A DNA stretch of 64,000 nucleotides from Nitrospira sp. (GTDB taxonomy: Bacteria > Nitrospirota > Nitrospiria > Nitrospirales > Nitrospiraceae). This document shows, piece by piece, positions 7,711-57,206 of this stretch (within the stretch, counting starts at the first letter, position 1; each line of letters begins with the position of its first letter). A program made the position numbers and the translations under genes. The stretch spans positions 73,624 through 137,623 of the forward strand of contig JANRMQ010000009.1 of the NCBI GenBank assembly GCA_040981125.1, in the 5' to 3' direction. A model generated the notes under the pieces. It was not told the DNA's origin. It made no database searches and saw nothing but the letters and a program-made list of their open reading frames with translations.

Positions 7711-9408
<1,698 letters not shown>

Positions 9409-9412
9409 TCAA

Positions 9413-10597
9413 TCACGCTTCCGATGTGCCGGTTGAAGAGGCGGCGATGGCCAATGCAGGCAGCGAAGATTTACATTCCTGGACCACTCGGGTAAACAGT
9501 TCCGCCAACATTGGGTCGAAGTGGGTATTTGCCTGAAGGGCGATTTGGCGGATCGCGTCGTCGATCGACAGAGGATGCGAGCCCGGGATATCGACCGTGA
9601 GCCTGTCGAACGCTTGAGCGATCGCGACAATGCGGGCAAGAAGCGGAATGCCGTCCCCGCGCAGACCGTGGGGATATCCCAGCCCATCGAACCTCTCGTG
9701 GTGGTAGGCGATGATTTGCCCTACCTCCGCGGGAAATCCCAACGGGAGAATCATGCGCGCGCCGACATCCGGATGCTCGGACCCAGGCCCCTCCGCCCCT
9801 TCCTGGGCGGAGAAGCGAGATGGAGAAGTGCGTATGCTGCCGATATCATGCAGAAAGGCTCCCAGCGAGAGGGATTTTTGCTCTGCCACAGGCAGGTTCA
9901 GACGGTTGGCGAGCAGGGAGGCATAGAAACTCACCCGGCTGCAATGATTGAGCAAGTGCCGATCTTTCGCTTCGAGCAGGTCCGATAATAGCGGGATCAA
10001 CGCGGTGGCCTCATTGTCCGTCGGGGCCGGTTCACCTTTTTGCGCCAAGCCGATTGAAAAGTACCCCTCCTTGATCTCTTTCCATGCCCGAGCAATGTCT
10101 TGCTCCGTTCCCCACAGCGCCGACGATTGTTTGAGGAACGAACGAAGAAAGTCCAAGCGGCGTTTTTTCTCCAGCGTTTGGTTGATGAGCGTAATGAGTT
10201 CCGTCACGTTAAAGGGCTTCAAAAGGTAACCGGCGGCGCCGTGGCGAATGCCCTCCATCGCGGACTTGAGGCTCCCGTAACCGGTAATGATAATGACTTC
10301 AATATCGGTATATTCCTGTTTGATATCCTGAAGGAGATCAATTCCCTGCCTGTCCGGTAATTTTTGATCCAAGGTAATCAAGTCTATATGCTGCTGCTTG
10401 AGGACTTGGAGAGCAGCCTGGGCGCTTTCGGCGGCATGGATCGTAAAAAACGGGCGAAGGATGACCTTGAGCGCGTCGCGCGGTCCTGTTTCATCGTCTA
10501 TGACCAAGACGGAAGGTTTACTTACGGAGTTACCTAGAGAAGGTAGGATCCCCATGCGGCGCGCTCCACGGGTGAGTTGCGAAGCAGTTGACTGCAT
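9413..10597 (-). CDS. Response regulator with an HD-GYP phosphodiesterase domain (RpfG-like)
   Basis: Receiver domain (VLVIDDE..DLITLDQKLPD), then HDIGS and HHERFDGLGYPHG motifs. The stop lies 4 nt from the convergent recN stop. Confidence 0.85.
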   Translation of the reverse strand: MQSTASQLTRGARRMGILPSLGNSVSKPSVLVIDDETGPRDALKVILRPFFTIHAAESAQAALQVLKQQHIDLITLDQKLPDRQGIDLLQDIKQEYTDIEVIIITGYGSLKSAMEGIRHGAAGYLLKPFNVTELITLINQTLEKKRRLDFLRSFLKQSSALWGTEQDIARAWKEIKEGYFSIGLAQKGEPAPTDNEATALIPLLSDLLEAKDRHLLNHCSRVSFYASLLANRLNLPVAEQKSLSLGAFLHDIGSIRTSPSRFSAQEGAEGPGSEHPDVGARMILPLGFPAEVGQIIAYHHERFDGLGYPHGLRGDGIPLLARIVAIAQAFDRLTVDIPGSHPLSIDDAIRQIALQANTHFDPMLAELFTRVVQECKSSLPALAIAASSTGTSEA

Positions 10598-10774
10598 GCA
10601 AGCAATACCGATGCCTTTTCAATGACATACGCATCGTTGCAACCTTGAACGGGCCGCCTACACGCGGCACGCTAGATATAGACTTCTACATAGAAGAGGT
10701 CAAGGCCGTTCTTCATAGTAAATCAAAGAGATGCACGCGATGCGGAAGGCCGCTGGATCTGTATCCATACCCCG

Positions 10775-12172
10775 TTACGATTCGACGGGAAGGGCGCTGT
10801 CCGGCCGGCTGATGCCCAAGGTGTCCATGCGGTATTTCAGCATCCTTCGACTGATGCCCAACATGCTCGCCGCGTGCGTTTGAATATAGTTGGTCCGCTT
10901 CAGCGCGTCGAGAATGATCTCCCGTTCAAATTCCATGACGGCCTTCTCCAGCGACAGACGACCGGCGAGCGTATCGTCCCGGAGAGAGGAGGAGCGCGTA
11001 TCTGTCCGCACGATCGTGGGCAGATGTTCGGGCAGAATGATGCCGGACCCTTTGGACCAGATAAACGCCTGTTCGATGATATTCTCCATTTCTCGGACAT
11101 TGCCCGGCCACGGGTATCGGGCGATCAGTTCCAGCGCGTCCTTGGAAAATTCCTGAACCTGGCGCTTTTCTTCCTCGATACGCCGAGCGAGAAAGTGTTT
11201 CGCGAGCAAAGGGATGTCCTCGCCGCGTTCCCGCAGGGGAGGCAAGTACAGCGCAATGACATTGATCCGGTAATACAGGTCTTCTCGGAATAATCCTTTG
11301 CGGACCAATTCATCCAAGTTCTTATTCGTCGCGGCGATGATACGCACATCGACTTTGATCGATTGGACGCCTCCGATACGGGTAAACTCGCGCTCTTGAA
11401 GCACGCGCAGCAGCTTGGCCTGGGTCGCCGGACTCAGATCTCCGATCTCATCGAGGAACAGGGTTCCGCTGTTCGCCAATTCGAATTGCCCGACTCGCCT
11501 CGCCGTGGCGTCGGTAAACGAGCCTTTTTCATGGCCGAACAATTCGCTTTCGATCAGCGTTTCCGGAAGCGCCGCGCAGTTCAGCGCGATGAACGGACGA
11601 TCCCGGCGAGCACTATTATAGTGAATGGCTTTGGCAACCAGCTCTTTTCCGGTCCCACTTTCGCCCGTCACGAGGACCGTGGTGCGGCTGTCCGCTACCT
11701 GTTCGATCTTGGCATAGATCTCTTGCATCGACGGGCTCTTGCCGATCAGGTTGTGAAAGGCATACCGTTGCACGATTTGAGCGCGGAGCTGTCGGACTTC
11801 GCGTTCCAGATCGTGTGAATTCAGGGTGCGATCCACGACAATACGCAGTTCTTCCACGTCAAACGGTTTGGAGAGGTAGTCGGCGGCGCCCAGCTTCATG
11901 GCATCGACGGCCGTTTTCACCGATTTGGTTCCCGTAAGCATAATGACCGGGGTATTGGGTCCATCGGCGCGCATCGTTTGAAGAACCGTCAGACCATCCG
12001 TCCCGGGCAGGATCACATCAAGAAGCACGAGATCAGGGGATTCCCGCTTGAACAACTCCAGGCCCTCTTGGGCGTCCGCGGCTTCCAGGATGTCATAGAC
12101 CGGCTCCAGCACCAGCTTCAGGGAAGCCCGCACCCGCGGCTCATCATCGACGAGAAGGACCCGCTTTTTCAT
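10775..12172 (-). CDS. Sigma-54-dependent response regulator (NtrC/AtoC type)
   Basis: Receiver (VLLVDDE..DLVLLDVILPG), AAA+ core with GESGTGKE, GAFTDA-like loop (KGSFTDA), LFLDEIG, and a Fis-type HTH (AASMLGISRRMLKYRM). Confidence 0.9.
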   Translation of the reverse strand: MKKRVLLVDDEPRVRASLKLVLEPVYDILEAADAQEGLELFKRESPDLVLLDVILPGTDGLTVLQTMRADGPNTPVIMLTGTKSVKTAVDAMKLGAADYLSKPFDVEELRIVVDRTLNSHDLEREVRQLRAQIVQRYAFHNLIGKSPSMQEIYAKIEQVADSRTTVLVTGESGTGKELVAKAIHYNSARRDRPFIALNCAALPETLIESELFGHEKGSFTDATARRVGQFELANSGTLFLDEIGDLSPATQAKLLRVLQEREFTRIGGVQSIKVDVRIIAATNKNLDELVRKGLFREDLYYRINVIALYLPPLRERGEDIPLLAKHFLARRIEEEKRQVQEFSKDALELIARYPWPGNVREMENIIEQAFIWSKGSGIILPEHLPTIVRTDTRSSSLRDDTLAGRLSLEKAVMEFEREIILDALKRTNYIQTHAASMLGISRRMLKYRMDTLGISRPDSALPVES

Positions 12173-13509
12173 ATGACTCCCGTACCGTCACTTGAATGCC
12201 GGCGCGCGTCGATCGGCAAAGAAACACGAAATGTCGATCCGAAGCCCTCCCTGCTTTCCACGGTAATGTCTCCTTGGTGTTCGCGAATGATTTGATGGGC
12301 GATCGTCAAGCCGAGGCCCGCGACCTCACTGCTGCTGTTCGAATGGCGGGTCGTGAAGAACGGATCGAAAATATGCTCCCTATCCTGGGGCGCGATGCCT
12401 TTTCCGTCGTCCTGTACCTCGATGCAGACGCGGCCGGCGGCGTCGGAGCGGTGTTCGATAAACGTCCGCACCATGATCTCCTTGCTTTGGTCTCCCGCTG
12501 CATCCAGGGCGTTCAGGAGCAAATTGATGATCACCTGTTTGATCTGCTGACGGTCCAGCAACACGATCGGCAAATGTTCGGAGAAATGGGTTCGTACTTG
12601 GATGCCGCGTCCGGAGGCCCGCATGGAAATGAACGAGAGACAGGAGGACACCAATTCGTTGAGATCTTCTTCCGTCGGTGCGGGGACGATGTAGCGGGCA
12701 TAGTCTAAAATCTCTTGAAGGAGGTGTTCGATACGGTGGATATCCTGCACCGCCACGCGACTGAACTCTTGCATGAATCGCGCATCATGGCGGCGTTCGG
12801 GAGCCAGTTGCACGAAGGTTTTGATCGACGTAAGCGGGTTGCGTATTTCATGCGCGAACCCGCCGGCCATGATTTCGAGCGACCGGAGACGGTCGGTCCT
12901 GCGCAGGAGAGTGTGGGGATGGCGGAGACTGTCTTTGGCAAGAGACCGGTGTAGCGCGCCGGCTGAAATTTGGGCGGCCAATTGGAAAGCGGATGTCCTG
13001 GTGGGGTCATGCAGGGCGCCGTTTTGAGTCTCCAATTCGAGCGTACAAAGCCCGACCGTCGATCCCGCGTAAGTTAGAAAGGAGACCGCATTGGAGCAGG
13101 AGGCGGTGAACAGCTCTTCTAAGATGGCTTCGACATCAGGGGCGAATAAATGCCGTGCTGTCTCTCGTCCAAGAATGCCTGGAACTTCGCGCAAGGCATT
13201 GGAAAGCCCGAATGATGCCGGCAACACGATCGGAATGGTCCGGCCGGACGACCCCAGCCGGCCGCGCCGGCGGTATTGCCCTTGCTCGACGTCTATCGTC
13301 CAAAGCGCGGTCGATGATGAGCAGGCAAGATCCGACAAGGTGTCGAGAATGTGTTGATGAGTACGATCGATATCCCCGGCGGTTTCCAGCTTCCGCATGA
13401 AACCGCCCAGAAGGATGAGAAGGTCCGAAGTCGGCCCGGTTGGCGCGATGCAGCAATGGTTGTCCATCATGATCTTGATAGGCGGTCGGCCCGCAAGGAT
13501 ATCCCTCAA
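12169..13509 (-). CDS. Sensor histidine kinase (GAF-like N-terminal region, HisKA, HATPase_c)
   Basis: H-box FAHEIRNPLTSI, N-box LLLNALDA, G-boxes DDGKGI and GLGLTI. ATGA stop/start overlap with the downstream regulator at 12169-12172. The start codon is uncertain. Confidence 0.8.
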   Translation of the reverse strand: MRDILAGRPPIKIMMDNHCCIAPTGPTSDLLILLGGFMRKLETAGDIDRTHQHILDTLSDLACSSSTALWTIDVEQGQYRRRGRLGSSGRTIPIVLPASFGLSNALREVPGILGRETARHLFAPDVEAILEELFTASCSNAVSFLTYAGSTVGLCTLELETQNGALHDPTRTSAFQLAAQISAGALHRSLAKDSLRHPHTLLRRTDRLRSLEIMAGGFAHEIRNPLTSIKTFVQLAPERRHDARFMQEFSRVAVQDIHRIEHLLQEILDYARYIVPAPTEEDLNELVSSCLSFISMRASGRGIQVRTHFSEHLPIVLLDRQQIKQVIINLLLNALDAAGDQSKEIMVRTFIEHRSDAAGRVCIEVQDDGKGIAPQDREHIFDPFFTTRHSNSSSEVAGLGLTIAHQIIREHQGDITVESREGFGSTFRVSLPIDARRHSSDGTGVI

Positions 13510-13895
13510 CCCAGAATGTGCGGCGGAGGCCCCATGGCGGCGGGAGTTCCTCCGGTCTGACGAAGGAAGTATACATCCCGGTTCTAGATGCGCCTAATGG
13601 AATCAAGCTTTTGCACGGTGGTGAGGAGGAGGACATGATTGTTTCACTATCATACAACCGAGTAAAGGCCCCATCCCATGCGCGATGGGTTGTGTGAAAC
13701 ACTCCGGGAGGGAAGCAACCGGTGAGGGCGCAAACCTGTGCGGATGTCAGTGCAAAGACGGGAGAGGCGCGAATGAGACGGACGATATTCGATGATCTAT
13801 AGAACGAAGAGACCAAGCGCAGGGCGCACACGTCAGATTGAAGGGGAAGCGGAGGCGGCCGCACGACCGCGATCCGTTTGCCCGATTAGTTTGCA

Positions 13896-14900
13896 CTATC
13901 GCGCGGCGGCCGTGCTGCTGGAATCGGCACAGTTGCCCGGCGTCATATAGAGGAGGTAGTTCCCCATCCCATGGTGAATATTGGGATTATGCAATGGATG
14001 GTGATGCACCATGATCATTTCATAGTCGTCTTTTCGAGTCACCTGAAATCCTTGGGCGTCTCGATAGACCTGATGAGGCTGGAACTCCAGAAAGGTTCCC
14101 TCCGAATCGACTGCCGGCACCGTGCGGAGGAGGGTCCGCCCTTCAGTTTTATTTTCAAGCGCAATGAGAAGCAACTCGTCATGGCCGTGAGGATAGGCAA
14201 ATTTGACGCAGCCGTCCATGTTAAACTTCAGCGGAGCTGTTTGAACGTTGACGCCGGGTTTGATTTCTATTCCTTCGTCGGTTTGGTCGGCCCCGCGCTG
14301 GCCAAATTTGCTATAGCAGACGATATTCACCCCCACCTGATATACGTCCATCTCTTTGACGGCGGTCCCTTCAGGCGCGACATACATGGTAAAACGCGCC
14401 ATCACGTCCTTGGTCGGCGGCGCCTTGTGATAGAAAGCCACCACGGACATGAGATTTTGGCCCTTGGCCAATTTGACACCATAGCCGTCCGGAAAGCGGG
14501 CCTCGGTCATCTCAAGACCGGCGCCGGCGAAGAACAACGGCTCTCCATCACAGGAGACGCTTGGTTTGTCGTTGTTGAGCATCAGGATATGATGAAGGTA
14601 ATTCCTCGGAAGCTGCTTTCCGTCCTTGGTAAACACTTCGGATTTGAATCCCGTCATGTACATATCCCGAGGCAGCTGAAAGATGTGTTTGGGCATGCTG
14701 GCGGCCAGATCTCCGTCATGGCCGGACGGCAAATCCACCGGTCCGAACGTCAACGCCACAACATTGTTCTCGATCGTGATGCTCGTGGCTGCTCGGCTCG
14801 GCATAGTGGGAATCGCATGATGGTCATGTTCTCCTGACGCAAAGGCGAACGATTGCCAGCCGAGTGTGACGAGCAACGACACGATCAGAGTTTTCAGCAT
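13896..14900 (-). CDS. Secreted His-rich protein of unknown function (possible copper monooxygenase-like fold)
   Basis: Signal peptide MLKTLIVSLLVTLGWQSFAFA. Ordered His/Met motifs HH(103-104), H158, HGH(238-240), M295/M297. Coherent long ORF with GGAGGAAG upstream. Confidence 0.5.
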   Translation of the reverse strand: MLKTLIVSLLVTLGWQSFAFASGEHDHHAIPTMPSRAATSITIENNVVALTFGPVDLPSGHDGDLAASMPKHIFQLPRDMYMTGFKSEVFTKDGKQLPRNYLHHILMLNNDKPSVSCDGEPLFFAGAGLEMTEARFPDGYGVKLAKGQNLMSVVAFYHKAPPTKDVMARFTMYVAPEGTAVKEMDVYQVGVNIVCYSKFGQRGADQTDEGIEIKPGVNVQTAPLKFNMDGCVKFAYPHGHDELLLIALENKTEGRTLLRTVPAVDSEGTFLEFQPHQVYRDAQGFQVTRKDDYEMIMVHHHPLHNPNIHHGMGNYLLYMTPGNCADSSSTAAAR

Positions 14901-28652: not shown

Positions 28653-29159
28653 ATGAGCGAGACCGGACCGATGAAAGCGACGATTGCCGTGAGTTCAAAG
28701 GGTGAACAGTGGGGCCAGATTGTGTTGCGATTCTTTCCCGATGTGGCGCCCAATCATGTCAAGAATTTTGCCACGCTGGCGAAACAGGGTTTTTATAACG
28801 GAACAACCTTCCACCGAGTCATTCCCGGGTTCATGATTCAAGGCGGAGATCCGAACAGCAAGAATCCGGACCGGGCCACGCATGGAATGGGCGGACCGGG
28901 ATTTCGAGTGAAAGCGGAATTCAACAGCAAGCCCCACAAGCGCGGGACCGTTTCCATGGCCCGTTCGAATGATCCCGATAGCGCCGGATCCCAGTTTTTT
29001 ATCTGCGTCGCCGATTCACATTTTTTGGATTGGCAGTACACGGTATTCGGCGAAGTCGAGAGCGGCATGGACGTGGTCGATAAGGTCGTCAATATCAAGC
29101 GGGATGGCCGCGACAACCCGCTGGAGCGGGTCGAGATGACGGTGACCATCGCCGAATGA
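28653..29159 (+). CDS. Cyclophilin-type peptidyl-prolyl cis-trans isomerase
   Basis: FHRVIPGFMIQGGDP, GTVSMARSNDPDSAGSQFFI. ATG at 28653 preceded by GGAGAGGAG. Confidence 0.85.
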   Translation: MSETGPMKATIAVSSKGEQWGQIVLRFFPDVAPNHVKNFATLAKQGFYNGTTFHRVIPGFMIQGGDPNSKNPDRATHGMGGPGFRVKAEFNSKPHKRGTVSMARSNDPDSAGSQFFICVADSHFLDWQYTVFGEVESGMDVVDKVVNIKRDGRDNPLERVEMTVTIAE

Positions 29160-29920
29160 CGCGGGGTGAAGGCCAAGACGTGGGCAGCAAAGTGGAGAAT
29201 GTGTCAGCCACCATGCGTCAAGCGGGCCGGGCCTTCACCGTCGCGGTATTACGCTTGACGCCGTACGCTTCATACGCCGTTGTTTTCCTCCTGCTCAGCG
29301 CCTGCGCGATTCCCCAAGTGCCCTCTCGCGTCGTCTATGAAGATCCGGTGAATTATGTGCGGCTGGAAACGGATCCGAACGTATTGCCGGAATGGCCCCC
29401 GAGTTACTTCGCCCACCCGGCGGAATTCAGCCAAGAGCAGGTGCGCAGGATTCTCAAAGCCCTCACCGTTCGAGAGCACCGTGTCAGCCTGCAGAGGTGG
29501 TTCCTTGGGGAGGCGCCGCGCGTGCCCGTGTTCCGTGACGAGGAGATCGCCCTGCTGGTGCCGCAAATTTCGGAAGCGCTGGCGCTGGCAAAGGAAAACG
29601 AGCGGGTCACATTCTATCTCAGTCAACCTCAGACCTCGATCAAGCGCATCATCACGTCGGGCGGGTTGTATATCAAAGGAACGAACCTCCATGTCATTCT
29701 CGGGAACTGGCAGATCGTTTACGGCATTCCGGCGTATGGCATGATTTACGACCGGCGCTATCCCATGAGCCCCACCGCGGCGAAGGGATTCGATTTGTTT
29801 TTTGAGAAGGAAGCCGCGATGACACGCCGGAAAACCAGTTTCTGGGATTGGCTGCTGGCCAATGTCAAAGACGAACTGGTCATCGATCTCGCCAAGGTGT
29901 TTCCCAATCCGTCCGTGTAG
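29156..29920 (+). CDS. Lipoprotein of an uncharacterised family (paralog of 52768-53499)
   Basis: Lipobox LLLSAC. Clear similarity to the second copy (VVYE..L E.DP, FRD[DE]EIA.L, ERV.F.LS.P). ATGA overlap with the PPIase stop; an internal Met at 29213 is an alternative start. Confidence 0.55.
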   Translation: MTRGEGQDVGSKVENVSATMRQAGRAFTVAVLRLTPYASYAVVFLLLSACAIPQVPSRVVYEDPVNYVRLETDPNVLPEWPPSYFAHPAEFSQEQVRRILKALTVREHRVSLQRWFLGEAPRVPVFRDEEIALLVPQISEALALAKENERVTFYLSQPQTSIKRIITSGGLYIKGTNLHVILGNWQIVYGIPAYGMIYDRRYPMSPTAAKGFDLFFEKEAAMTRRKTSFWDWLLANVKDELVIDLAKVFPNPSV

Positions 29921-30271: not shown

Positions 30272-31498
30272 ATGAGGACGCTCACAAGTAAAGATCATCA
30301 CAGAAGTTACGACGGAACGAGAATCTCGATCCGACCCCACGTCCTAGGGGTCTTGGTAATCGGCTGCTTCGCGATGGCGGGAACGGTCTTATCGTTGACG
30401 GCCGAAGCAAACCATGAAGGACGCGAGCATGCAGTTGAAGATCATCATGAGGCGATTGGGGCGGGCCATCCAATCCCGGGCGTGTCCTTTCAAGTATTCC
30501 TGGATCGGGCGCAAGTAACGACGCCAGGAGATGGATTTGACCAGGCTCAAGCCGATGCGGCTGTTCAAACGGTCGTCGATGCCTTCACATTCATGATTCA
30601 GCATCGGACCGACTATCAGCGTTTTGATGAAACGATAAAGAAAAATCTGCTTGAAAAAGTCATCATTGAATCGACCGTCGTCAATCAGGATGGAAAGTCC
30701 TTCCCTTTCCTGGTCGCTCGCACGAAGGAGCCGGGACGGGTCAAACTGTTGATCAACGGGTCCTCATTGAAGGAGAAAGGCCATCTGGGCCATCCCGACC
30801 GGCTTGTCCCTGTGCTCGCCAGAGAGTTTCAATGGGTCGTCAGTAAAGCCGATACGAGCCCAAAACCGAAGACCGTGTCGGTTGAACGGGATCTCAAACA
30901 TGCCCCTATCCGCAGCGACAAAGAGATCCGAGAGATGTCGGGGGACGACCGCACCAGCCTGATTCAACAGTTGTTCGACACCTATCTGAAAACCGTCGAT
31001 GACCATAAGAGCCTGGAAGGGCAATCCTATTATGAAGTCGGTACGACCGCATTGATTCCACCGGCGCAACCGGATTCCACGATCAAGCTCTACGAGATCC
31101 GGGTTCGCGAGGCCTTACAGAAGATCGTACGGGATGCGTATTTCAGCGAACGGACGCCGAAAGCGGTCAAGAGCCTACTGAACGGCACAGTTTGGAATGT
31201 CGCCTTCGTCAAGATCGATCAACGTGATTGGGCTACGCGCACCAGAGTGCTGTCGGAAGACAAGGCTGTGGCGGTAGGAGGAGCCGGCCGAGTGGTTCAA
31301 CCGGCTGCGATCTTGGTGAATACGTATCGGACGGCTGCTCCGGACGACCCGTTTTATCAGGATACAAAGGGCCTGCCGATGGGTGCGCTGTCGGCGGACC
31401 AACTTGCCCGCGTCATCGCGTTGGAAATTCAACACAACATCATCGAGAAATCCATGACCGGCCATGTGGCGCAGGACGAGATGACGGCGCCCAAGTGA
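30272..31498 (+). CDS. Membrane-anchored/exported hypothetical protein
   Basis: Coherent 408-aa ORF with an N-terminal TM (VLGVLVIGCFAMAGTVLSL) and a His-rich stretch. I recognise no domain. Flanked by non-coding A/T-richer DNA. Confidence 0.5.
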   Translation: MRTLTSKDHHRSYDGTRISIRPHVLGVLVIGCFAMAGTVLSLTAEANHEGREHAVEDHHEAIGAGHPIPGVSFQVFLDRAQVTTPGDGFDQAQADAAVQTVVDAFTFMIQHRTDYQRFDETIKKNLLEKVIIESTVVNQDGKSFPFLVARTKEPGRVKLLINGSSLKEKGHLGHPDRLVPVLAREFQWVVSKADTSPKPKTVSVERDLKHAPIRSDKEIREMSGDDRTSLIQQLFDTYLKTVDDHKSLEGQSYYEVGTTALIPPAQPDSTIKLYEIRVREALQKIVRDAYFSERTPKAVKSLLNGTVWNVAFVKIDQRDWATRTRVLSEDKAVAVGGAGRVVQPAAILVNTYRTAAPDDPFYQDTKGLPMGALSADQLARVIALEIQHNIIEKSMTGHVAQDEMTAPK

Positions 31499-31819
31499 AA
31501 AAGACCGCATAGCGCTCATTCCAGTAAGGAACAGACTTCCAGCTCGGGCCCTCTATTCTGCGGACAGTATGTTGTGTATCCCTTCTGATACGTTCCTGCG
31601 TGATTATTGGATACAGCCCGTGCCATATCATCCCAGCCGCAAGAATACTTCCATTCGTATTCCCTTGTAGAGTCACCTCCCGAGATCTTCTTTGCCACGG
31701 TACGTAGTTTGCTTATGCCGTAGGCCTGATTTTAGCCATCGGTCAAGTGTGATGCCGCCTACAATGATCGCCGACATCGTATGCGGAGCTATGCGGAACG
31801 GAAGCCTGAGGGGGGTCGA

Positions 31820-33310
31820 ATGAAGCCTACACTGCAATTTGATGAGCTGCATGTCATCTCCGATCTTCACCTGGGAGGCGTGAAGCCATTTCAGATTTTC
31901 GGATCGACCAGGGAGCTTGTAGCCTTAGTCGAATATCTAACGAAGATAACCGTTGAGAGGCAGGTGGGACTACTCATCAACGGGGACTTCATTGATTTTC
32001 TGGCTGAGGAGCCGAGCGCATATTTCGATCCAGATGGCGCGGTCAGTAAGCTGAATCGCATACTGAAAGACGCAACCTTCGAGCTGATTGTTGATGCACT
32101 CAGCAAGTTCGTTCGTACCAAGAACCGCATGCTCATGATCAATCTGGGCAATCATGACTTGGAGCTTGCCCTACCATGGGTTCGCGAGCACCTGATCCAA
32201 TCTCTGTGCGGCGAAGATCTCGAAGCGAGAGGAAGACTCAACATTGTCCTAGATGGGACCGGCGTTCTCTGCCAAGTCGGAAATGCCCTCGTGCTCTGCC
32301 TCCATGGTAACGAAGTGGACAGCTGGAATGTCGCGGACTTCGAAACCATTCGCCGTGTTGGACGCGATGCCCAGTTTGGCTGGCCCGTCGAAGCTTGGGT
32401 TCCGAACGCCGGAACCCGGATGGTAATCGATGTGATGAATACAATCAAGCGTCGCTTCCCGTTTGTGGACTTGCTGAAACCGGAAGCCGAAGCCGTGGTG
32501 CCGACCTTGCTTGCGTTGGATCCGTCTGCTTTGCCGACACTCCGGGACGTGGCGTCGGTAGCAGGGCGTAGAGCATGGGATGCGGCCCGCATGGCCACGG
32601 GTTTTCTTGGTGATCCGATAGCAAACACGAACGGCGTGATTTCCAGGGCAGTGGAGCCGCCAGCCGCAATTATGGCCGGTGGAGCCGGCAGATTCAGTGA
32701 ACGAGGCGGACGAGTGCGTGCCGACGACGAATTGTTGAGTCTCATGGAAGTGGTGGAAATCGAGGCGCGCAAGGGAACGGTGCCGATGGATCTCATCAAA
32801 CAAGACCAAGATAGGCAGCTTGGCTTCTGGGGGGCGACATGGAAGTTGATCTCGGGAAAACCCATGCCCGAGGTTCTGCGTGAGGCGCTTGAAGATCTGG
32901 ACAAGGACAGATCCTTCGATATCGAGGAACCCGATGATACCTTTAAGCGGCTGGACGCGCTGGTAACCTCGAATATCGATTATGTTGTCGCAGGTCACAC
33001 TCATCTGGAACGGGCGCTGCGAAGAAAATCAGGCCGGGCTTATTACTTCAACAGCGGCACATGGGCGCGTCTGATCAAGATCAAGAAGGCGACTCGCCAG
33101 GATCCGGTGAAGTTTGAGCGCGTGTTTAATCTCCTCAAAGGCGGATCGATGGAGGACCTGGATAAGGAGCCTGACCTGGTCATCAAACGCTGCTCGATTG
33201 TTTCAGTTTGGACGGACCCAGATGGTCGGACCTATGGCGAATTGCGCCGAATGGGAGCGGGACAAGACCAGCCTCAGCCAGTCGAGGACAGCCGCTACCC
33301 CAGGAGTTAA
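31820..33310 (+). CDS. Calcineurin-like metallophosphoesterase with a large internal insertion
   Basis: Full ordered motif set: SDLHLGG, NGDFIDF, GNHDLE, LHGNE, AGHTHLE. About 230 aa separate the last two. ATG at 31820 after GAGGGGGG. Confidence 0.8.
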   Translation: MKPTLQFDELHVISDLHLGGVKPFQIFGSTRELVALVEYLTKITVERQVGLLINGDFIDFLAEEPSAYFDPDGAVSKLNRILKDATFELIVDALSKFVRTKNRMLMINLGNHDLELALPWVREHLIQSLCGEDLEARGRLNIVLDGTGVLCQVGNALVLCLHGNEVDSWNVADFETIRRVGRDAQFGWPVEAWVPNAGTRMVIDVMNTIKRRFPFVDLLKPEAEAVVPTLLALDPSALPTLRDVASVAGRRAWDAARMATGFLGDPIANTNGVISRAVEPPAAIMAGGAGRFSERGGRVRADDELLSLMEVVEIEARKGTVPMDLIKQDQDRQLGFWGATWKLISGKPMPEVLREALEDLDKDRSFDIEEPDDTFKRLDALVTSNIDYVVAGHTHLERALRRKSGRAYYFNSGTWARLIKIKKATRQDPVKFERVFNLLKGGSMEDLDKEPDLVIKRCSIVSVWTDPDGRTYGELRRMGAGQDQPQPVEDSRYPRS

Positions 33311-33314
33311 AGCT

Positions 33315-35351
33315 ATGCGCACCATCACACTCGAGTTGCTGCGACATGGGCCGACTCACAATCAACTGCTGTCGCCGCTGACCCAATATTTGGCGTTGTG
33401 TCAAAATCATTCGGCCGTGACGGTGCGCGTTCCGTTTGAGCATAATCAAATGCTGTATCGCCTGCGCGCCCTGAGTTACGCGCTTGGTCCGGAGGGCCGT
33501 CAGTTTCAAGTCAAGGATACCGCGCAGGTACTCGGCTCTTTGCTGGCCGAGATTCCAGGTCTCACCGCCGATATGAATCGATGGCAGGACGACGCCAATT
33601 CAGATCCGGTGACGCATCTGAGGCTCGTGCTCTCTGCTTCTGAACTGGCCCTGCTTCCCTTCGAACTGGCGCTCGCACCCAATGGATTTCCCGGCGCAGG
33701 TCAGCCGCTATGCCTCCAGGCCCAAATGCCGCTGTGCATCATGCGCGAGACGCGGAGGGTAGCGGAGGAATTCGATGAGTGGCCCGACCGTCCTCGGATA
33801 TTGTTCGTTGCGTCGACTCCGCCGGGGTATGGAGCCGTTCCCGTTGAGGCGCATTTGCTAGCACTTCGCAAAGCGCTCGAGCCGTGGATAGGATTTGTTG
33901 AGACCAATGACTCCGACACACGGCGCCGGCAGGTCGCGCGGTATCTATCTGTTCTGACTCATGCGAGCATTGAAAGCATCGAGGAGGCTTGCGCCACCGA
34001 ACGATTCACTCACATTCATATCCTGGCGCATGGAACCCAGTGTCCGGGCGACTATGACATCCGGTTTGGCCTTGCATTGCATGATGCTCGGGATCCGCTT
34101 GCACGGGCGGACGTTGTGAGCGGCGAACGGCTTGTAAGTGCGTTGAGAGTTTCCAGACGCGGTGAGCACGGAAAGCTCATGCGGCCGGCGGTGGTTACCC
34201 TCGCTAGCTGTGACAGCGGCAACGTAGGCACGGTTGCCGGCGTCGGCGGCAGCATTGCGCATGCTCTGCATGAAGGGGGCATTCCACTCGTGATCGCATC
34301 CCAGTTTCCGCTTTCGTTTGGCGGCTCGGTGCGCATGGTGGAAACCTTGTATGGAGGTCTGTTGTGGGGCGAGGATCCCCGCAAAGTCCTGATCGATTTA
34401 AGGCGGCAACTCCACGCAGAGTTTCCAAATACGCATGATTGGGCCAGCGTGACGGCCTATGCATCGCTTTCTCCAGGGTTTGAGGGTCAACTCACCTCAG
34501 CACAGATTCGAAGGGCTAAATCCAGCATTGATGAAGCATTGAGGGTTGCGGACGAAGTCACACGGCGATTTTGTTCTCGGTCGGCCCAGCGCTTGAAGCA
34601 TTCGAAGCCCGGAACAAAGCTGGAGCAAGAGCAACTTCTCGACAACACAAGGTTCCAAGTCGTGGCGGCGAAGCAACGACTGGAGAAACTGTTAACCCGA
34701 TACCCGTCCGAGCGAGCAAGAATCCGTGGACTACTTGCGAGCACGGAAAAGCGCGAAGCTGCGGTGCATTACGCGAGACGGAATATCGTTCCCATAGAAG
34801 CGGATCAATTGGTTGAGTGTCGCGAGCAGGCACTCAATGCCCTCATTCGTGCACGAGAGCATTATTGGGACGCGTTCATAACGAATCGTGAGAACTACTG
34901 GATCATTGTCCAATATTTGTCATTGACGATCATTCTACAGAAGAGCGAGCGGCTTCCGAAGTCTGTGGGGGACGCGGAGCGCATTCCCGCCGCACTTTGG
35001 ACCATGGCGGAAATGCAATCGCTATGTGATCTTCGGAGCAATGGCCGGCTCACGCGAATCTGGGCGTTGGGCAATTTGGTCGAACTCTATATCCTTGCAC
35101 CGTTGACCGATCATATTGCCGTGCAAAACGATGTTCCGGGTCTTATCGATAAGGCGTCAGCGCGAGCAAAGGATCTCGTGGCTGTCGCAGGCTCGGACCC
35201 ATTTGGAATCTTTTCCACGCGTCGCCAAGTGGCTCGCTATTTGGATTGGTACAACGATCTCACCGGAGGCTCTCTGAAACCGATCATTCCAATCGCTGAA
35301 GCGGTATTTGCTCAGTTGCCAGAACGGGAGGAACCCGAATGGGATTATTAA
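33315..35351 (+). CDS. CHAT-domain (caspase-like) protease with a helical C-terminal region
   Basis: LALLPFELA, HIHILAHG (His239, codon 34029-34031) and TLASCDSGN (Cys299, codon 34209-34211). ATG lies 4 nt after the upstream stop, with GGAG inside the upstream gene's end. Confidence 0.8.
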   Translation: MRTITLELLRHGPTHNQLLSPLTQYLALCQNHSAVTVRVPFEHNQMLYRLRALSYALGPEGRQFQVKDTAQVLGSLLAEIPGLTADMNRWQDDANSDPVTHLRLVLSASELALLPFELALAPNGFPGAGQPLCLQAQMPLCIMRETRRVAEEFDEWPDRPRILFVASTPPGYGAVPVEAHLLALRKALEPWIGFVETNDSDTRRRQVARYLSVLTHASIESIEEACATERFTHIHILAHGTQCPGDYDIRFGLALHDARDPLARADVVSGERLVSALRVSRRGEHGKLMRPAVVTLASCDSGNVGTVAGVGGSIAHALHEGGIPLVIASQFPLSFGGSVRMVETLYGGLLWGEDPRKVLIDLRRQLHAEFPNTHDWASVTAYASLSPGFEGQLTSAQIRRAKSSIDEALRVADEVTRRFCSRSAQRLKHSKPGTKLEQEQLLDNTRFQVVAAKQRLEKLLTRYPSERARIRGLLASTEKREAAVHYARRNIVPIEADQLVECREQALNALIRAREHYWDAFITNRENYWIIVQYLSLTIILQKSERLPKSVGDAERIPAALWTMAEMQSLCDLRSNGRLTRIWALGNLVELYILAPLTDHIAVQNDVPGLIDKASARAKDLVAVAGSDPFGIFSTRRQVARYLDWYNDLTGGSLKPIIPIAEAVFAQLPEREEPEWDY

Positions 35352-35572
35352 GAATATGAACTCGCCGCTCATGAGGCTCTTCAGACAGCCTGTGCCATGC
35401 TCACGTCCTCCTCTTTCGATCGGAAATTTCGGCCTTCCTCGGGTCTTGAACGAAATAGTCAGCCTCTCTAGACTCATTCATGTAGACTCTACGCCTGATC
35501 GCAAGCGCTGCCTCGTGCAGGGCGCTGATTCGATGAATGTGTCCGCACAACTCCAAATAGAAAGGAGCCGTT

Positions 35573-35980
35573 ATGGGTCTCTTCGGCACAATTCTGGAAA
35601 AACTTGGTTTCGGTGGCGCTGCCGCTCAGGCTTCACCCACGGCCGCACCACAGGCCGAGCCGGCTCAAGCTCAAGCGGCGCCTCAACCTGCAGCGCCACC
35701 TCCGGCAAAGGCATCCGGCTCCGTCGATGTCGTCGCCAAGCTGGGAAGTCTCGCCGCGAAGCACAAAGAAAAACTCAATTGGAGAACATCGATCGTGGAT
35801 CTTCTCAAACTACTAGGCCTCGACAGCAGCCTTACGGCGCGCAAGGAATTGGCGACGGAGCTTGGATGTCCTACGGATAAAATGAACGATTCGGCGCAGA
35901 TGAACATGTGGCTGCATAAGACCGTCATGAAGAAACTTGCCGATAACGGGGGCAACATCCCGAAGGAACTTTTGAGCTGA
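35573..35980 (+). CDS. DUF3597 domain protein
   Basis: MGLFGTILEKLGFG N-terminus, Pro/Ala/Gln-rich linker, conserved C-terminal LNWRTSIVDLLKLLGLDSS..ELGC. AAAGGAG precedes the ATG. Confidence 0.6.
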   Translation: MGLFGTILEKLGFGGAAAQASPTAAPQAEPAQAQAAPQPAAPPPAKASGSVDVVAKLGSLAAKHKEKLNWRTSIVDLLKLLGLDSSLTARKELATELGCPTDKMNDSAQMNMWLHKTVMKKLADNGGNIPKELLS

Positions 35981-37738: not shown

Positions 37739-39682
37739 ATGTATAGAACCGTGTCCCTGAAAACATCGATTGTCGCGATCGGACTGATGAGCCTCTGCCT
37801 GTTTGTTATGCCGGTCATCCTATCCTGGCCGGACGATTTATCTCGGCCGATCGCGCTGGCTGCGGAATCCGATGTCCCATTGTCCGAAACGGCGGTAGCG
37901 GACGCAAGGGACGAGCAAAAGATCGAGACGTCGCGGGATGTCTATTACAAGACGGAAGGAATCGTGTCGGGCCAGCCGGCTCCGCAGGCGACCGATAGCC
38001 AAAAGGATTACCCTCGTTACAACTTTGAAAGTCGCGTGCTGATCTGGATCGCCAACCAACAGCATCTCTATTACGGCAGTTTTGTTCTCGCGGTGCCGAT
38101 CTTCTGCATGATCATTGAATTCATGGGCATGGTGGCCAAAGACAAGACCATGGCTCAACGGTACGATCGGCTCGCGTACGATTTCGTGAAGATCAGTCTC
38201 ACGGCCTATTCGTTGACCGCGATTCTCGGAGGGATTCTCGTCTTCACGTTCCTGACCCTGTACCCGACGTTCTTCGGATATTTATCCAGTATTTTTCGGC
38301 CGGTCATGCATCTCTATGCCTTGCTCTTCGTGGCCGAGAGCGGGACCCTCTATGTCTATTATTACGGCTGGGACAAAATGAAAGACGGCTTTCTCAAATG
38401 GATCCATCTGAGCCTGGCCGTCGCCTTGAACACCATCGGCACGGTGCTCATGTTTCTGGCCAATTCCTGGATCGGCTTCATGATGTCTCCGGCCGGAGTA
38501 GACGAGCAGGGCCGTTACCTGGGCAATATCTGGCACGTCATCCATACGGCACTGTGGAATCCGCTGAACATGCACCGGATTCTCGGCAACATGGCGTTCG
38601 GCGGCAGCGTCGTCGCGGCCTATGCGGCCTACCGGTTTCTGGCGGCGAAAACGAAAGAGGAGCGGGCCCATTATGATTGGATGGGCTATGTGGCGATGTT
38701 CATCGCGGTCGTGTTTCTTATTCCGTTGCCGTTCGCAGGCTACTGGCTCATGCGCGAGGTCTACGCCTATCGCCAGCAAATGGGCATCACGCTGATGGGC
38801 GGTCTCCTCGCCTGGCTCTTTATCATCCAGGCCACCATGATCGGCGCGCTGTTTCTCACGGCGAGCTACTATCTCTGGCAATGCTTGGATCGCATGCGCG
38901 GAGCGGAGCGTTATCAAAAGTACATCAAGTACGTATTGTTCGCCATGGTCGCGGGATTCCTCGTGTTCATCACGCCGCACACCATGGTCATGACTCCTGC
39001 CGAACTAAAGGCAATGGGCGGCCAGCAGCATCCGGTGCTGGGCAATTTTGGAGTCATGTCGGCCAAGAACGGCGGCATCAATATCCTGATCGTCGCGACC
39101 ATCTTGAGCTTTATCTGGTATCAACGCGGGAACAAGGTACCCACGGTGTCCTGGGCGAAATTCGGCAACATTCTCATGGGCTGCTTTTTCGCCGTTGGGG
39201 CGTTAAATATCATCTGGCTCGCGGTCTATGGCTACTATATCCCGGCGAATGTACGGGTGGGCCTGTCCGTGCCGCAGGTGGCGACGACTTTGTCCTGTCT
39301 CATCTTCATGACCACCCTGAATCTTCTCATGTTACGGGGGGCAACGCTCGCCGGACCGGTGGAATGGGGGAAGATGGCGGGACGCAGCCAGTATGCCTTG
39401 ATCATGTTGGCGACGGAATTCACTTGGATGATGGCCTTGATGGGGTACATCCGGTCGTCCGTCCGGCTGTTCTGGCACGTGAACGAAATCATGCGCGACA
39501 ACAGCCCGTGGGCCTACACCCATACCGTGGGATTTGCGGCCAACATGATCTCATTCAACGTGCTGTTTTTCTGGGTCAGCATTCTCTTTGTATTCTGGTT
39601 GGCGTCGCTGGGTGAAAAGAAGGCGGTCCAGAAACAGCCGGCGGCAACACCCCACATGGTGCCGCAGCCGGTGAGGCGTTGA
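37739..39682 (+). CDS. Cytochrome bd-like oxidase subunit I family membrane protein
   Basis: 647 aa, polytopic (more than 10 hydrophobic helices). The N-terminal QHLYYGSFVLAVPIFCMIIEF resembles the CydA first-helix His motif. No cydB follows. AAGGAG precedes the ATG. Confidence 0.6.
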   Translation: MYRTVSLKTSIVAIGLMSLCLFVMPVILSWPDDLSRPIALAAESDVPLSETAVADARDEQKIETSRDVYYKTEGIVSGQPAPQATDSQKDYPRYNFESRVLIWIANQQHLYYGSFVLAVPIFCMIIEFMGMVAKDKTMAQRYDRLAYDFVKISLTAYSLTAILGGILVFTFLTLYPTFFGYLSSIFRPVMHLYALLFVAESGTLYVYYYGWDKMKDGFLKWIHLSLAVALNTIGTVLMFLANSWIGFMMSPAGVDEQGRYLGNIWHVIHTALWNPLNMHRILGNMAFGGSVVAAYAAYRFLAAKTKEERAHYDWMGYVAMFIAVVFLIPLPFAGYWLMREVYAYRQQMGITLMGGLLAWLFIIQATMIGALFLTASYYLWQCLDRMRGAERYQKYIKYVLFAMVAGFLVFITPHTMVMTPAELKAMGGQQHPVLGNFGVMSAKNGGINILIVATILSFIWYQRGNKVPTVSWAKFGNILMGCFFAVGALNIIWLAVYGYYIPANVRVGLSVPQVATTLSCLIFMTTLNLLMLRGATLAGPVEWGKMAGRSQYALIMLATEFTWMMALMGYIRSSVRLFWHVNEIMRDNSPWAYTHTVGFAANMISFNVLFFWVSILFVFWLASLGEKKAVQKQPAATPHMVPQPVRR

Positions 39683-56000: not shown

Positions 56001-56027
56001 GAGAACCTCCAGTGGTCCGGTCAGTTC
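56001..56027 (-). promoter_or_regulatory. 27-nt conserved palindromic element, copy B (upstream of the porin)
   Basis: Sense strand GAACTGACCGGACCACTGGAGGTTCTC. It ends 22 nt before the porin ATG. A degenerate third copy lies at 56061-56082. Confidence 0.5.
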
Positions 56028-56092
56028 CCGAGCAGATTGTTGAATGCCGCTAATGATGGCCCAGTGGTCTGGTGGCCGAGTTAGAAACGACT

Positions 56093-56272
56093 TCAGCGCT
56101 CCCGATCGAAACGCAGCTTCTCTTTCCGCTCTATTTGGACGATGCGTGAATCATGAATGGTGATTTCAATGGAGCCGTACCGGATACCTCCGATAGCCGT
56201 CGCAATATGAGACAGATCTTGTTCCCTGGCATAGGAATAGGCGGTGAAAGATTCCTCGCTCTGCATGGTCAT
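56093..56272 (-). CDS. YezD/DUF2292 family small protein
   Basis: GSIEITIHDSRIVQIERKEKLRF is the family hallmark. Start trimmed to MTMQSEE. Confidence 0.6.
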   Translation of the reverse strand: MTMQSEESFTAYSYAREQDLSHIATAIGGIRYGSIEITIHDSRIVQIERKEKLRFDRER

Positions 56273-56465
56273 TCTCCTACGTGTAGGTATTCTTAGTAAT
56301 CCGATGAGGATTAAAATAATTAACTTGAATAAGAAAGTCAAGAATAACTTTCTGAACTACTGCTGATGCAAGAATATTTGACTATTATTATACTATGCTG
56401 TACTGTCCTGCAGCCTGCTCTACGCAGAGACGAGGGTCACCTAATTATTAACAAGGGGAAACTCC

Positions 56466-57206
56466 ATGGAAGAAAGTTGCTGTACATCGCAGCGAAAGGG
56501 TTCCAGGCGGCGTCCGTTTCAGCTGGAAGGGGAGGATCTCCACGCGTTCGATCGTATTAAGATTCCGATTACGTATAAAGCCAATCAAACAGTATTTTAT
56601 GAGGGGCATGCGAGCCTCGGTTTGTACATGTTGTGTTCCGGGAAGGTGAAGTTGACGCGATCTTCGATAAAGGGCCAACGTGTCATCGTCCGTATTCTTG
56701 AAGGGGGGGACATTATTGAGAAAGAAGCCTTCGGGGACAAGACGGTTCATCAAGTGACCTGTGAAACACTGGAGCCGTGCAAGATCTGTCTGATTGAAAG
56801 AGCACCCTACCTCGAATTGGTCAAGCGGAACGGCGCACTCGCTCTGAGCTTGATCGAGTTGCTCAGCTCCGAAGTACGCTCGCATATCGGCCAACTTGAC
56901 GAGTTTCTTTTTAAGAACGCACGGGAAAGGCTCGCCGCAAAACTGTTGCAGTTGGCATTACGATTTGGTTTTCGTGTTGAAGGTGGTGTGAGCATCGGAA
57001 TGAATCTCAAACGTGAAGAAGTCGCCGAGATGGCCGGTATCACGCCGGAGACATTGGCGCGGTTACTCGGAGCTTTTCAAGGGGAGAAACTCATCACCGT
57101 GCATGGGAGGACCATCACACTTGTCGACATCGACAGGCTTTCACGCATCGCCCGCTATCCCGATCTCAAGTTGGCGCAGGTTTCAGCAGAGGCGCCGGCT
57201 TCTTAA
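56466..57206 (+). CDS. Crp/Fnr family transcriptional regulator
   Basis: cNMP-binding-like beta-roll (FYEGHASLGLYMLCSGKVKL) and C-terminal HTH (REEVAEMAGITPETLARLL). Confidence 0.85.
   Translation: MEESCCTSQRKGSRRRPFQLEGEDLHAFDRIKIPITYKANQTVFYEGHASLGLYMLCSGKVKLTRSSIKGQRVIVRILEGGDIIEKEAFGDKTVHQVTCETLEPCKICLIERAPYLELVKRNGALALSLIELLSSEVRSHIGQLDEFLFKNARERLAAKLLQLALRFGFRVEGGVSIGMNLKREEVAEMAGITPETLARLLGAFQGEKLITVHGRTITLVDIDRLSRIARYPDLKLAQVSAEAPAS

Follow-up and report, generated by a model that had tools for sequence, protein, structure and literature searches.

Two adjacent genes of a Nitrospira sp. encode a calcineurin-like metallophosphoesterase (MPE) and a caspase-fold cysteine protease of the CHAT family, and together they constitute a self-contained two-gene operon that is almost never split, whose two members co-diverge and which moves horizontally among bacteria. 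The pair lies in a 64,000-nucleotide stretch of contig JANRMQ010000009.1 (assembly GCA_040981125.1; positions 73,624-137,623, forward strand), referred to here as the window; coordinates below are those of the window and features lie on its plus strand, unless another locus is named. An earlier note, made from the letters of the window alone, had singled out the pair as a candidate module of biological conflict or defence. The linkage of the two genes and the catalytic competence of their products are regarded as secure; a role in defence, and cleavage of one protein by the other, are not. That the pair is a conflict module of the abortive-infection or regulated-death type, in which the protease gates the phosphoesterase through the full chain of events proposed below, is a reading drawn largely by analogy, and we hold it to be a serious possibility that falls somewhat short of probable.

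Gene junction, co-inheritance and horizontal spread

Gene 1 (31820-33310) encodes the MPE, a protein of 496 amino acids with a large helical lid, and a public protein of that length, MEX5219179.1, is 100% identical to its product. The longest open reading frame (ORF) at this site opens at ATG 31781; the ATG at 31820 is preferred as the start because the homologues and the identical 496-residue public protein begin at MKPT. A Shine-Dalgarno-like element read from the sequence, GAGGGGGG (31808-31815), ends 4 nucleotides 5' of this ATG. Gene 1 closes with TAA at 33308-33310, and the Shine-Dalgarno sequence of gene 2, AGGAG (33302-33306), is embedded in the final codons of gene 1, with 4 nucleotides from the stop codon to the next ATG. 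Gene 2 (33315-35351; MEX5219180.1) encodes the CHAT cysteine protease, 678 residues long, with a C-terminal repeat domain of the TPR-S type. The earlier note had reported two co-directional genes spaced by 4 nucleotides, with the ribosome-binding site of the second inside the end of the first, and all of these coordinates were confirmed. The MPE and CHAT genes are probably co-expressed; a scan for promoters and terminators gave no signal above shuffle expectation. The same note had placed the pair in an A/T-richer segment, which does not hold: the GC content of the pair (0.56-0.58) equals the window mean, and only the stretch upstream, at 30-32 kb, is lower (0.526-0.536).

The linkage was measured from both sides. 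In a forward census, the MPE was searched against one genome per species in 185,579 species, which gave about 240 matches, of which the best 80 loci were analysed; in a reverse census, the CHAT protein was searched against metagenomes, where 69 loci had enough upstream sequence. A CHAT homologue lies directly downstream of the MPE gene, on the same strand, in 79 of the 79 evaluable genome loci, the sole non-evaluable member of the best 80 being one whose contig ends 36 nucleotides past the MPE gene. From the other side, an MPE gene precedes the CHAT gene in 67 of the 69 metagenome loci. Homologues of the two genes are thus syntenic across unrelated genomes, as the earlier note had expected of a genuine module. 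The gap from stop to start has a median of 10 nucleotides and is 30 nucleotides or less, or an overlap, in 64 of 77 homologous loci, and the pairwise distance matrices of the MPE and CHAT proteins correlate with r = 0.90 (Mantel p ~0.001), which reflects co-divergence. With the order of the genes fixed, and their flanks unrelated, over at least eight phyla, these figures effectively refute the idea that the adjacency is fortuitous and the genes functionally unrelated, an explanation to which we give next to no chance.

The unit is confined to the two genes. No third gene recurs across the 80 loci, the biggest cluster of flanking genes (12 of 80) consisting of generic histidine kinases, and family-specific hidden Markov models run on the flanks found no paralogous modules. 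Clustering at 50% identity divides the family into about 944 clusters, and no MPE-CHAT fusion, or Rosetta-stone protein, is present among the best 150 of the 944 family representatives. Nor was an adaptor domain found that is common to the MPE and the CHAT protein (hhalign probability 0.1%).

Only about 0.1% of species carry the pair, yet these belong to at least eight phyla. Represented among the best 80 loci are Alpha-, Beta-, Gamma- and 'Delta'-proteobacteria, Acidobacteriota, Bacteroidota, Gemmatimonadota, Planctomycetota, Verrucomicrobiota, Nitrospirota, Bdellovibrionota and one metagenome-assembled genome (MAG) labelled Heliobacteriaceae (L037), with Paraburkholderia, Bradyrhizobium, Acidobacteriota, Planctomycetota and Verrucomicrobiota as the main hosts. 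A deltaproteobacterial copy shares 63% identity with that of Nitrospira, versus 47% (MPE) and 51% (CHAT) for another copy from the Nitrospiraceae, and the flanking genes are wholly different between lineages. Disruption of the pair is seen as well. In a member of the Bryobacterales (L081) an IS630-type DDE_3 transposase splits the CHAT gene (12467-13579), in an insect-symbiont Paraburkholderia both genes are frameshifted (L078:196-2879), and in Pontibacter an IS110 transposase abuts the pair. These features show a pair that is mobile and dispensable. Two further loci carry incomplete copies: at L055:9326-11342 the CHAT gene is split, and at L051:11434-11520 it is cut off after 29 amino acids, the same MAG holding a second, intact copy (L063).

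Two enzymes with intact active sites

The gene 1 product matches the Pfam Metallophos profile (PF00149) over residues 12-193 (37.5 bits against a cutoff of 21.5, E 4.5e-09), and the metal-binding motifs DxH, GD, GNH[DE], H and GHxH are present in that order; each motif that the earlier note had quoted was located, in the canonical order that it gave. Motif I, SDLHLGG (S14-G20; 31859-31879), contributes D15 and H17, motif II, NGDFIDF (N54-F60; 31979-31999), contributes D56, and motif III, GNHDLE (G110-E115; 32147-32164), contributes N111 and H112. H162 is provided by motif IV, LHGNE (L161-E165; 32300-32314), and H393 and H395 by the combined motifs V/VI, AGHTHLE (A391-E397; 32990-33010). Because all eight of these metal or catalytic residues are invariant, in 129 of 129 MPE homologues, the protein is counted as an active enzyme. 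As judged from its sequence, this metallophosphoesterase is soluble and binuclear, its active site is intact, and it is predicted to be catalytically competent.

Between H162 of motif IV and H393 of motif V lie 231 residues, in agreement with the approximately 230 of the earlier note. The AlphaFold2 (AF2) model of the MPE has a confident globular core (predicted template modelling score 0.78), and its secondary structure places in this interval a helical lid, or cap, that extends over residues 166-385 (32315-32974) and occupies the topological position of the substrate-binding lid of LpxH. Residues 262-306 of the lid (32603-32737) form a hypervariable and probably disordered loop, with a predicted local distance difference test score (pLDDT) below 50 and a majority frequency of 0.31. 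The loop varies in length from 17 to 61 residues among homologues and is rich in A, G, P, E and S, and the Gly/Ala/Arg-rich part that the earlier note had recognised between motifs IV and V lies within it. Outside the loop, the majority frequency of the lid is 0.67-0.69, compared with 0.70 for the N-terminal catalytic core and 0.79 for the block of motifs V-VI; so high a conservation of the lid, about equal to that of the N-terminal core, implies that the substrate is specific and conserved.

Two dipeptides of the lid merit attention as candidate sites of cleavage by the CHAT protease. Leu263-Gly264, candidate site 1, sits at the mouth of the loop (32606-32611); L263 is found in 128 of 129 homologues, and position 264 is G, S or A in 119 of 129. 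Candidate site 2, Leu334-Gly335 (32819-32824; L334 in 127 and G335 in 119 of the 129), sits in a second low-confidence segment of the model, residues 319-339. They are the only [LM]-[GSA] dipeptides conserved outside the ordered core of the MPE.

In fold comparisons with Foldseek, the best matches of the MPE are LpxH structures (6pib, E 2.4e-04), with a TM-score of 0.51 when normalised to LpxH and 0.28 when normalised to the query. The next match is the phosphodiesterase Rv0805, and Mre11 (4yke) ranks 29th, with E 0.094. The nuclease flavour of the Mre11/SbcD type that the earlier note had allowed for is therefore not borne out: Mre11 falls far below LpxH and Rv0805, and no SbcC/Rad50-like partner recurs. 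Identity with Mre11/SbcD was rejected on this fold rank, on the lack of any recurrent third gene, and on the nature of the partner, a protease.

The gene 2 product matches Pfam CHAT (PF12770) with 79.5 bits against a cutoff of 24 (E 3.8e-22), over profile positions 2-287 of 289, and the profile is matched by 30 of 30 family members tested. Profile searches thus uphold the identities that the earlier note had assigned to both genes. The CHAT domain as aligned by Pfam comprises residues 68-382 (33516-34460), and the three hallmarks read earlier from the sequence, LALLPFELA, HILAHG and LASCDSGN, are all present in the protein. His239 of HILAHG (codon 34029-34031) follows a strand at residues 233-237 of the model, Cys299 of LASCDSGN (codon 34209-34211) follows a strand at residues 293-297, and H239, G240 and C299 are invariant in 139 of 139 CHAT homologues. 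The CHAT core superposes on that of the SAVED-CHAT structure 8tl0 (Foldseek E 7.4e-07, rmsd 3.3 Å over 231 columns). Sequence searches of the PDB with single sequences and profiles of both proteins returned nothing meaningful, hence a residue-level alignment of H239 and C299 to a proven CHAT dyad was not obtained, and the earlier proposal that these two residues are the dyad is sustained indirectly, by their invariance and by canonical positions within the Pfam CHAT and Foldseek SAVED-CHAT matches. From that invariance, and from the positions that the two residues take after core strands in the model, His239 and Cys299 are predicted to be an intact His/Cys dyad of the caspase fold.

The CHAT domain is preceded by an N-terminal module, residues 1-67 (33315-33515), that falls outside the Pfam match and is the most conserved stretch of the whole two-gene module. 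Its majority frequency is 0.86 for residues 1-65 and 0.96 for the first 20, and R10 is present in 139 of 139 homologues. Despite this high conservation, the AF2 model of the CHAT protein has a pLDDT below 50 over residues 1-151 (33315-33767). The N-terminal module could possibly serve as a docking surface for the MPE. A phosphatase motif of the PGAM type was considered for its sequence LLRHG and rejected, since homologues have Q or D in the place of H11.

C-terminal to the CHAT domain, residues 389-678 (34479-35348) make up an all-helical repeat domain that resembles TPR-S; its helices are predicted by AF2 with a pLDDT mostly above 80, and its Foldseek matches are to TPR/IFIT-like folds. Against the TPR-S profile (PF20308) the gene 2 product itself scores 21.3 bits, below the cutoff of 27.6, and 18 of 30 family members match at E <= 1e-3, the best at 1.1e-07. 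The earlier note had rightly called this region helical; its length is about 290 residues rather than about 230, and at the level of the family it is a TPR-S domain rather than one that defies recognition. Of the folded parts, the repeats are the least conserved (majority frequency 0.50-0.53), and the domain is a putative sensor or regulatory domain.

A proposed protease-gated phosphoesterase and its rivals

By analogy with gasdermin-protease operons and with the Csx29-Csx30 pair, a chain of events can be proposed for the operon. The TPR-S-like repeat domain would sense a trigger and switch on the CHAT protease allosterically, and the protease would then cut the co-expressed MPE in the disordered loop of its lid, at L263-G264 and/or L334-G335. 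Opening or excision of the lid would free the phosphoesterase. The freed enzyme would act on a conserved cellular phosphodiester or pyrophosphate compound, such as a nucleotide-diphosphate-linked metabolite or a nucleotide, and growth would be arrested. The protease-gated phosphoesterase of the earlier note is still the best reading of the pair and has gained a concrete candidate cleavage motif; an effector of the Mre11/SbcD nuclease type is not supported. The more specific proposition, that the pair is an unrecognised immune or cell-death system in which a TPR-S-guided CHAT protease activates an LpxH-like MPE proenzyme by excision or opening of its lid at the conserved Leu-Gly sites, and so kills or arrests the cell by hydrolysis of an essential metabolite, nucleotide-diphosphate-linked or a nucleotide, seems to us somewhat unlikely as a whole.

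It is necessary to set out what weighs against a protease-gated conflict module. Since the lid lies between motifs I-IV and motifs V-VI, a cut in it would part the two sets, and cleavage could inactivate the MPE rather than activate it; the Leu-Gly beside the loop may simply be structural. At one metagenome locus (L108) the gene upstream of the CHAT gene, where the MPE should be, encodes an S8 subtilase, and at another (L152) the CHAT gene stands alone without an MPE gene; the MPE is therefore not strictly indispensable to the protease. No copy of the pair was found in phage genomes or in 2.9 million viral contigs (IMG/VR), and a search of plasmids returned one small plasmid carrier together with chromids of Paraburkholderia. 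An identity of about 50% across phyla is unusually high conservation for an immune sensor. A test for defence islands on the 125 nearest neighbours gave a weak signal, the neighbours being mostly housekeeping genes, those of this window included.

Some of the same observations have led us to consider an accessory module that serves the physiology of soil and freshwater bacteria with large genomes; regulated proteolysis might, for example, be coupled in it to the hydrolytic breakdown of a lipid or nucleotide-sugar intermediate when the cell is stressed or starved or remodels its envelope. Housekeeping neighbours, the absence from phages and viral contigs, the rarity on plasmids, the LpxH-like fold and the main hosts listed above would all suit a function of this kind, and the high conservation, which includes the lid, implies a conserved cellular substrate. 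Such a module would, however, be expected to fit poorly with an occurrence in only some 0.1% of species and with relationships that are incongruent with phylogeny; the pair is also readily lost or disrupted, the combination of CHAT with TPR-S is one typical of conflict systems, and no metabolic neighbour is conserved beside it, so that we consider a physiological module unlikely. A further possibility is a stable complex of two parallel effectors, both triggered via the repeat domain, in which the protease would act on proteins and the MPE on nucleic acid, nucleotide or lipid, with no processing of one by the other. A stoichiometric complex would suit genes so tightly coupled in translation and so strictly inherited together. 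Neither active site varies among the homologues, the conserved N-terminus of the CHAT protein that AF2 does not fold could dock the MPE, and the accessory subtilase of some loci suggests that effectors may be stacked in a modular way. Yet nothing indicates how the MPE of such a complex would stay inactive before the trigger, the top 150 family representatives contain no fusion proteins, and no adaptor domain is common to the two proteins; parallel effectors are, in our estimate, improbable.

The roles of the two enzymes could also be reversed, with the protease as the effector, cleaving proteins of the host or the invader, and the MPE as a regulator that keeps CHAT off or resets it, either by hydrolysing a small signal molecule, phosphorylated or nucleotide, or by removing phosphate from the protease. 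The earlier note had offered a version of this, in which the phosphoesterase degrades a signal that controls the protease. Rv0805, which is among the fold neighbours of the MPE, is a cyclic-nucleotide phosphodiesterase, and calcineurin-type domains in other conflict systems are predicted to be nucleotide phosphodiesterases; the near-invariant N-terminal module of CHAT could bind an invariant small ligand, and the CHAT gene exists without an MPE gene in L108 and L152. Against this, a conserved signal-making enzyme is wanting, as the pair has no recurrent cyclase, nucleotidyltransferase or kinase gene beside it, and neither SAVED, CARF and cNMP-binding domains nor any other known ligand sensor was detected in it. 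Regulation by the MPE would also leave unexplained why its disordered loop is bracketed by conserved Leu-Gly dipeptides. We regard this arrangement as quite unlikely.

Were the proposed gating of the phosphoesterase by the protease to prove true, a lid-locked phosphoesterase would be the third class of executioner gated by bacterial caspase-like proteases, after the pore-forming gasdermins and the transcription-linked Csx30. It would be the first metallophosphoesterase effector activated by a protease, would extend to a metabolic enzyme the 'caspase-cuts-neighbour' logic of gasdermin and Csx30, and would provide a function for both the uncharacterised TPR-S repeat domain and the family of LpxH-like enzymes. 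If the pair is a physiological module instead, it would be an unusual example of obligate coupling between a protease and a phosphoesterase in soil bacteria. The family is large and cleanly delimited and consists of two genes only, with both active sites and the candidate cleavage motif mapped, which makes the proposal directly testable.

Genomic neighbourhood and relation to known systems

In the window, the pair is preceded by genes for TatC, a BNR propeller, a cyclophilin and two unknown proteins, and is followed by genes for DUF3597, TrmL, a cytochrome bd-like oxidase and a sigma-54 activator. No tRNA genes are present at 20-45 kb of the window and no repeats flank the cassette (31350-35700); the window as a whole contains no tandem or CRISPR-type repeats and no Rfam elements. 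Two ORFs close upstream of the pair lack Pfam matches. One (30272-31498; 408 residues) has a hydrophobic N-terminus and no match in Pfam, NCBIfam or PADLOC, and falls where the GC content near the pair is lowest (0.526-0.536); the other (29156-29920; 254 residues) has no Pfam match. Neither ORF recurs beside the pair elsewhere. Downstream, a membrane protein of 647 residues (37739-39682) matches cytochrome bd oxidase subunit I only over residues 98-345 (E 1.6e-19), which makes it a divergent 'bd-like' oxidase. The lowest GC content of the window, 0.483 against a mean of about 0.57, is found at 56001-57000.

Enrichment next to defence genes, which the earlier note had proposed as a test, is weak. 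Neighbours are mostly housekeeping genes, and several of the PADLOC hits among them, to AAA_21/AriA, GajB and PD-T4-6, proved to be ABC ATPases, housekeeping UvrD and Ser/Thr kinases. A few loci do have real neighbours of the conflict type. At L085 (1647-6560 and 8724-10004), a UPF0175/DUF3368 toxin-antitoxin pair, TIR_2, DUF2201 (vWA-like) and a MoxR-type AAA protein are encoded 3-8 kb upstream of the pair; at this locus an AlkZ-like gene overlaps the start codon of the MPE gene. On a 37.5-kb Methylobacterium plasmid (L084; NZ_CP099612.1) the pair is adjoined by a four-gene cluster (9186-14084) that encodes a Dam methyltransferase, a second calcineurin-type MPE with wHTH-Calcineurin_assc, an ORC-CDC6-like ATPase (PF24389, E 1e-95) and a hypothetical protein, and that looks like a separate conflict system. 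In a Prosthecobacter MAG (L072:13629-16049), an 807-residue fusion of Trypsin_2 and Endonuclease_NS lies directly downstream of the pair. It is similar to the conflict genes of the NucA-peptidase type in Kaur et al. 2020.

An S8 subtilase of approximately 390-430 residues lies beside the pair in four genomes, three of Bacteroidota and one of an Acidobacterium, with 57-61% identity between phyla; this accessory gene was mapped to L027:8582-9763, L034:8488-9678, L036:8788-9960, L041:14376-15671 and, in the place of the MPE gene mentioned above, L108:1402-2595. It matches only generic subtilase and IetS catalytic models. The subtilase may be an accessory second protease of the module, which would fit conflict systems of the cascade type, and this is only a hint. 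A helicase of the UvrD/PcrA type with a Tudor domain is encoded upstream of the pair at several loci of Acidobacteriota and Gemmatimonadota (L018:7308-9686, L087:7196-9559, L003:869-3265), and it probably reflects synteny within lineages rather than a functional link.

The earlier note could recall no named defence system to which the pair corresponds, and comparison with catalogued systems agrees. In PADLOC-DB 2.0.0 the MPE has 0 matches, the CHAT protein matches SAVED_CHAT only in part, and no system is matched by both proteins; the literature available in full text likewise yielded no named MPE-CHAT system. Judged against that database and the searchable literature, the pair appears not yet to have been named, and a recent naming is possible. 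Two papers by Kaur et al. (2020 and 2021) describe predicted conflict systems whose effectors are processed or released by a caspase-fold peptidase, with calcineurin-superfamily phosphoesterases among these effectors (MoxR-vWA, GAP1), and term searches of the two papers returned no passage on an MPE-CHAT pair. Unlike the ternary systems found there, the conserved core of the present pair has no NTPase (MoxR, STAND or GTPase). The two-gene EACC1-caspase system was also considered. According to Kaur et al. 2020, EACC1 is a membrane protein with a single transmembrane segment, encoded 5' of the caspase gene; because EACC1 is a transmembrane protein, and the 5' gene here encodes a soluble MPE of 496 residues, this assignment was rejected.

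With LpxH, the UDP-2,3-diacylglucosamine pyrophosphatase, the MPE shares a calcineurin-like core and a helical lid that occupies the interval from motif IV to the GHTH motif, and JGI pipelines label members of the MPE family 'LpxH'. LpxH is a protein of about 240 residues, in whose motif III an Arg replaces the His of GNH[DE]. The MPE, by contrast, is twice that size, with a lid of about 220 residues, and its motif III is GNHD with H112 invariant; unlike a housekeeping LpxH, its family is confined to about 0.1% of species, scattered over at least eight phyla, and has a CHAT gene beside it. Assignment of the MPE as the lipid A enzyme LpxH was rejected on these grounds of size, motif III, rarity and linkage to a protease.

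For the protease core, the best structural match is SAVED-CHAT (8tl0), a protease activated by cyclic oligonucleotides that belongs to type III CRISPR/CBASS-like signalling. The likeness is confined to the core: the PADLOC SAVED_CHAT model aligns with the gene 2 product only over profile positions 110-276 of 498, its CHAT part, and Pfam detects no SAVED domain. The context differs too, in that neither a nucleotide cyclase nor a CRISPR setting accompanies the pair, and sensing would be via the TPR-S repeats. The type III-E Craspase likewise joins a CHAT protease to TPR-type repeats, and its substrate is encoded in the same locus. Csx29 cuts Csx30 only once, in a small flexible loop, and is activated allosterically by a signal that passes from the TPR domain to the His/Cys site (Strecker et al., PMC10028731). 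The repeats of the present protein are C-terminal to CHAT, whereas those of Csx29 are N-terminal, and the partner here is an enzyme, whereas Csx30 is a protein of the sigma-factor-inhibitor type. Craspase is also associated with Cas7-11/gRAMP and a CRISPR array; the window has no CRISPR array, and no cas-type gene was seen among the scanned proteins.

Gasdermin operons, in which the effector gene adjoins a gene for a caspase-like protease, often of the CHAT type, offer the remaining comparison. The CHAT protease of Runella makes one cut in the neighbouring gasdermin, with Leu247-Gly as P1-P1' in a flexible loop, by which autoinhibition is released; the Leu-Gly dipeptide matters for this cleavage, and gasdermin-associated proteases are often fused to TPR, LRR, WD40 or NACHT domains (Johnson et al., bioRxiv 10.1101/2021.06.07.447441). 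No PADLOC model for gasdermin matched the pair or two scanned neighbours in the window, and none is among the listed top families of the 125 neighbours. The partner in the present operon is an LpxH-like metallophosphoesterase of 496 residues and no pore-former, and the candidate site is located inside the lid, whereas the gasdermin site is just before a C-terminal inhibitory peptide. In common with the gasdermin operons, the pair is a short operon in which a CHAT protease with repeats is encoded beside its partner, and here it is a disordered loop of the MPE that is bracketed by conserved dipeptides of the Leu-Gly type, identical to the P1-P1' residues at the Runella site.

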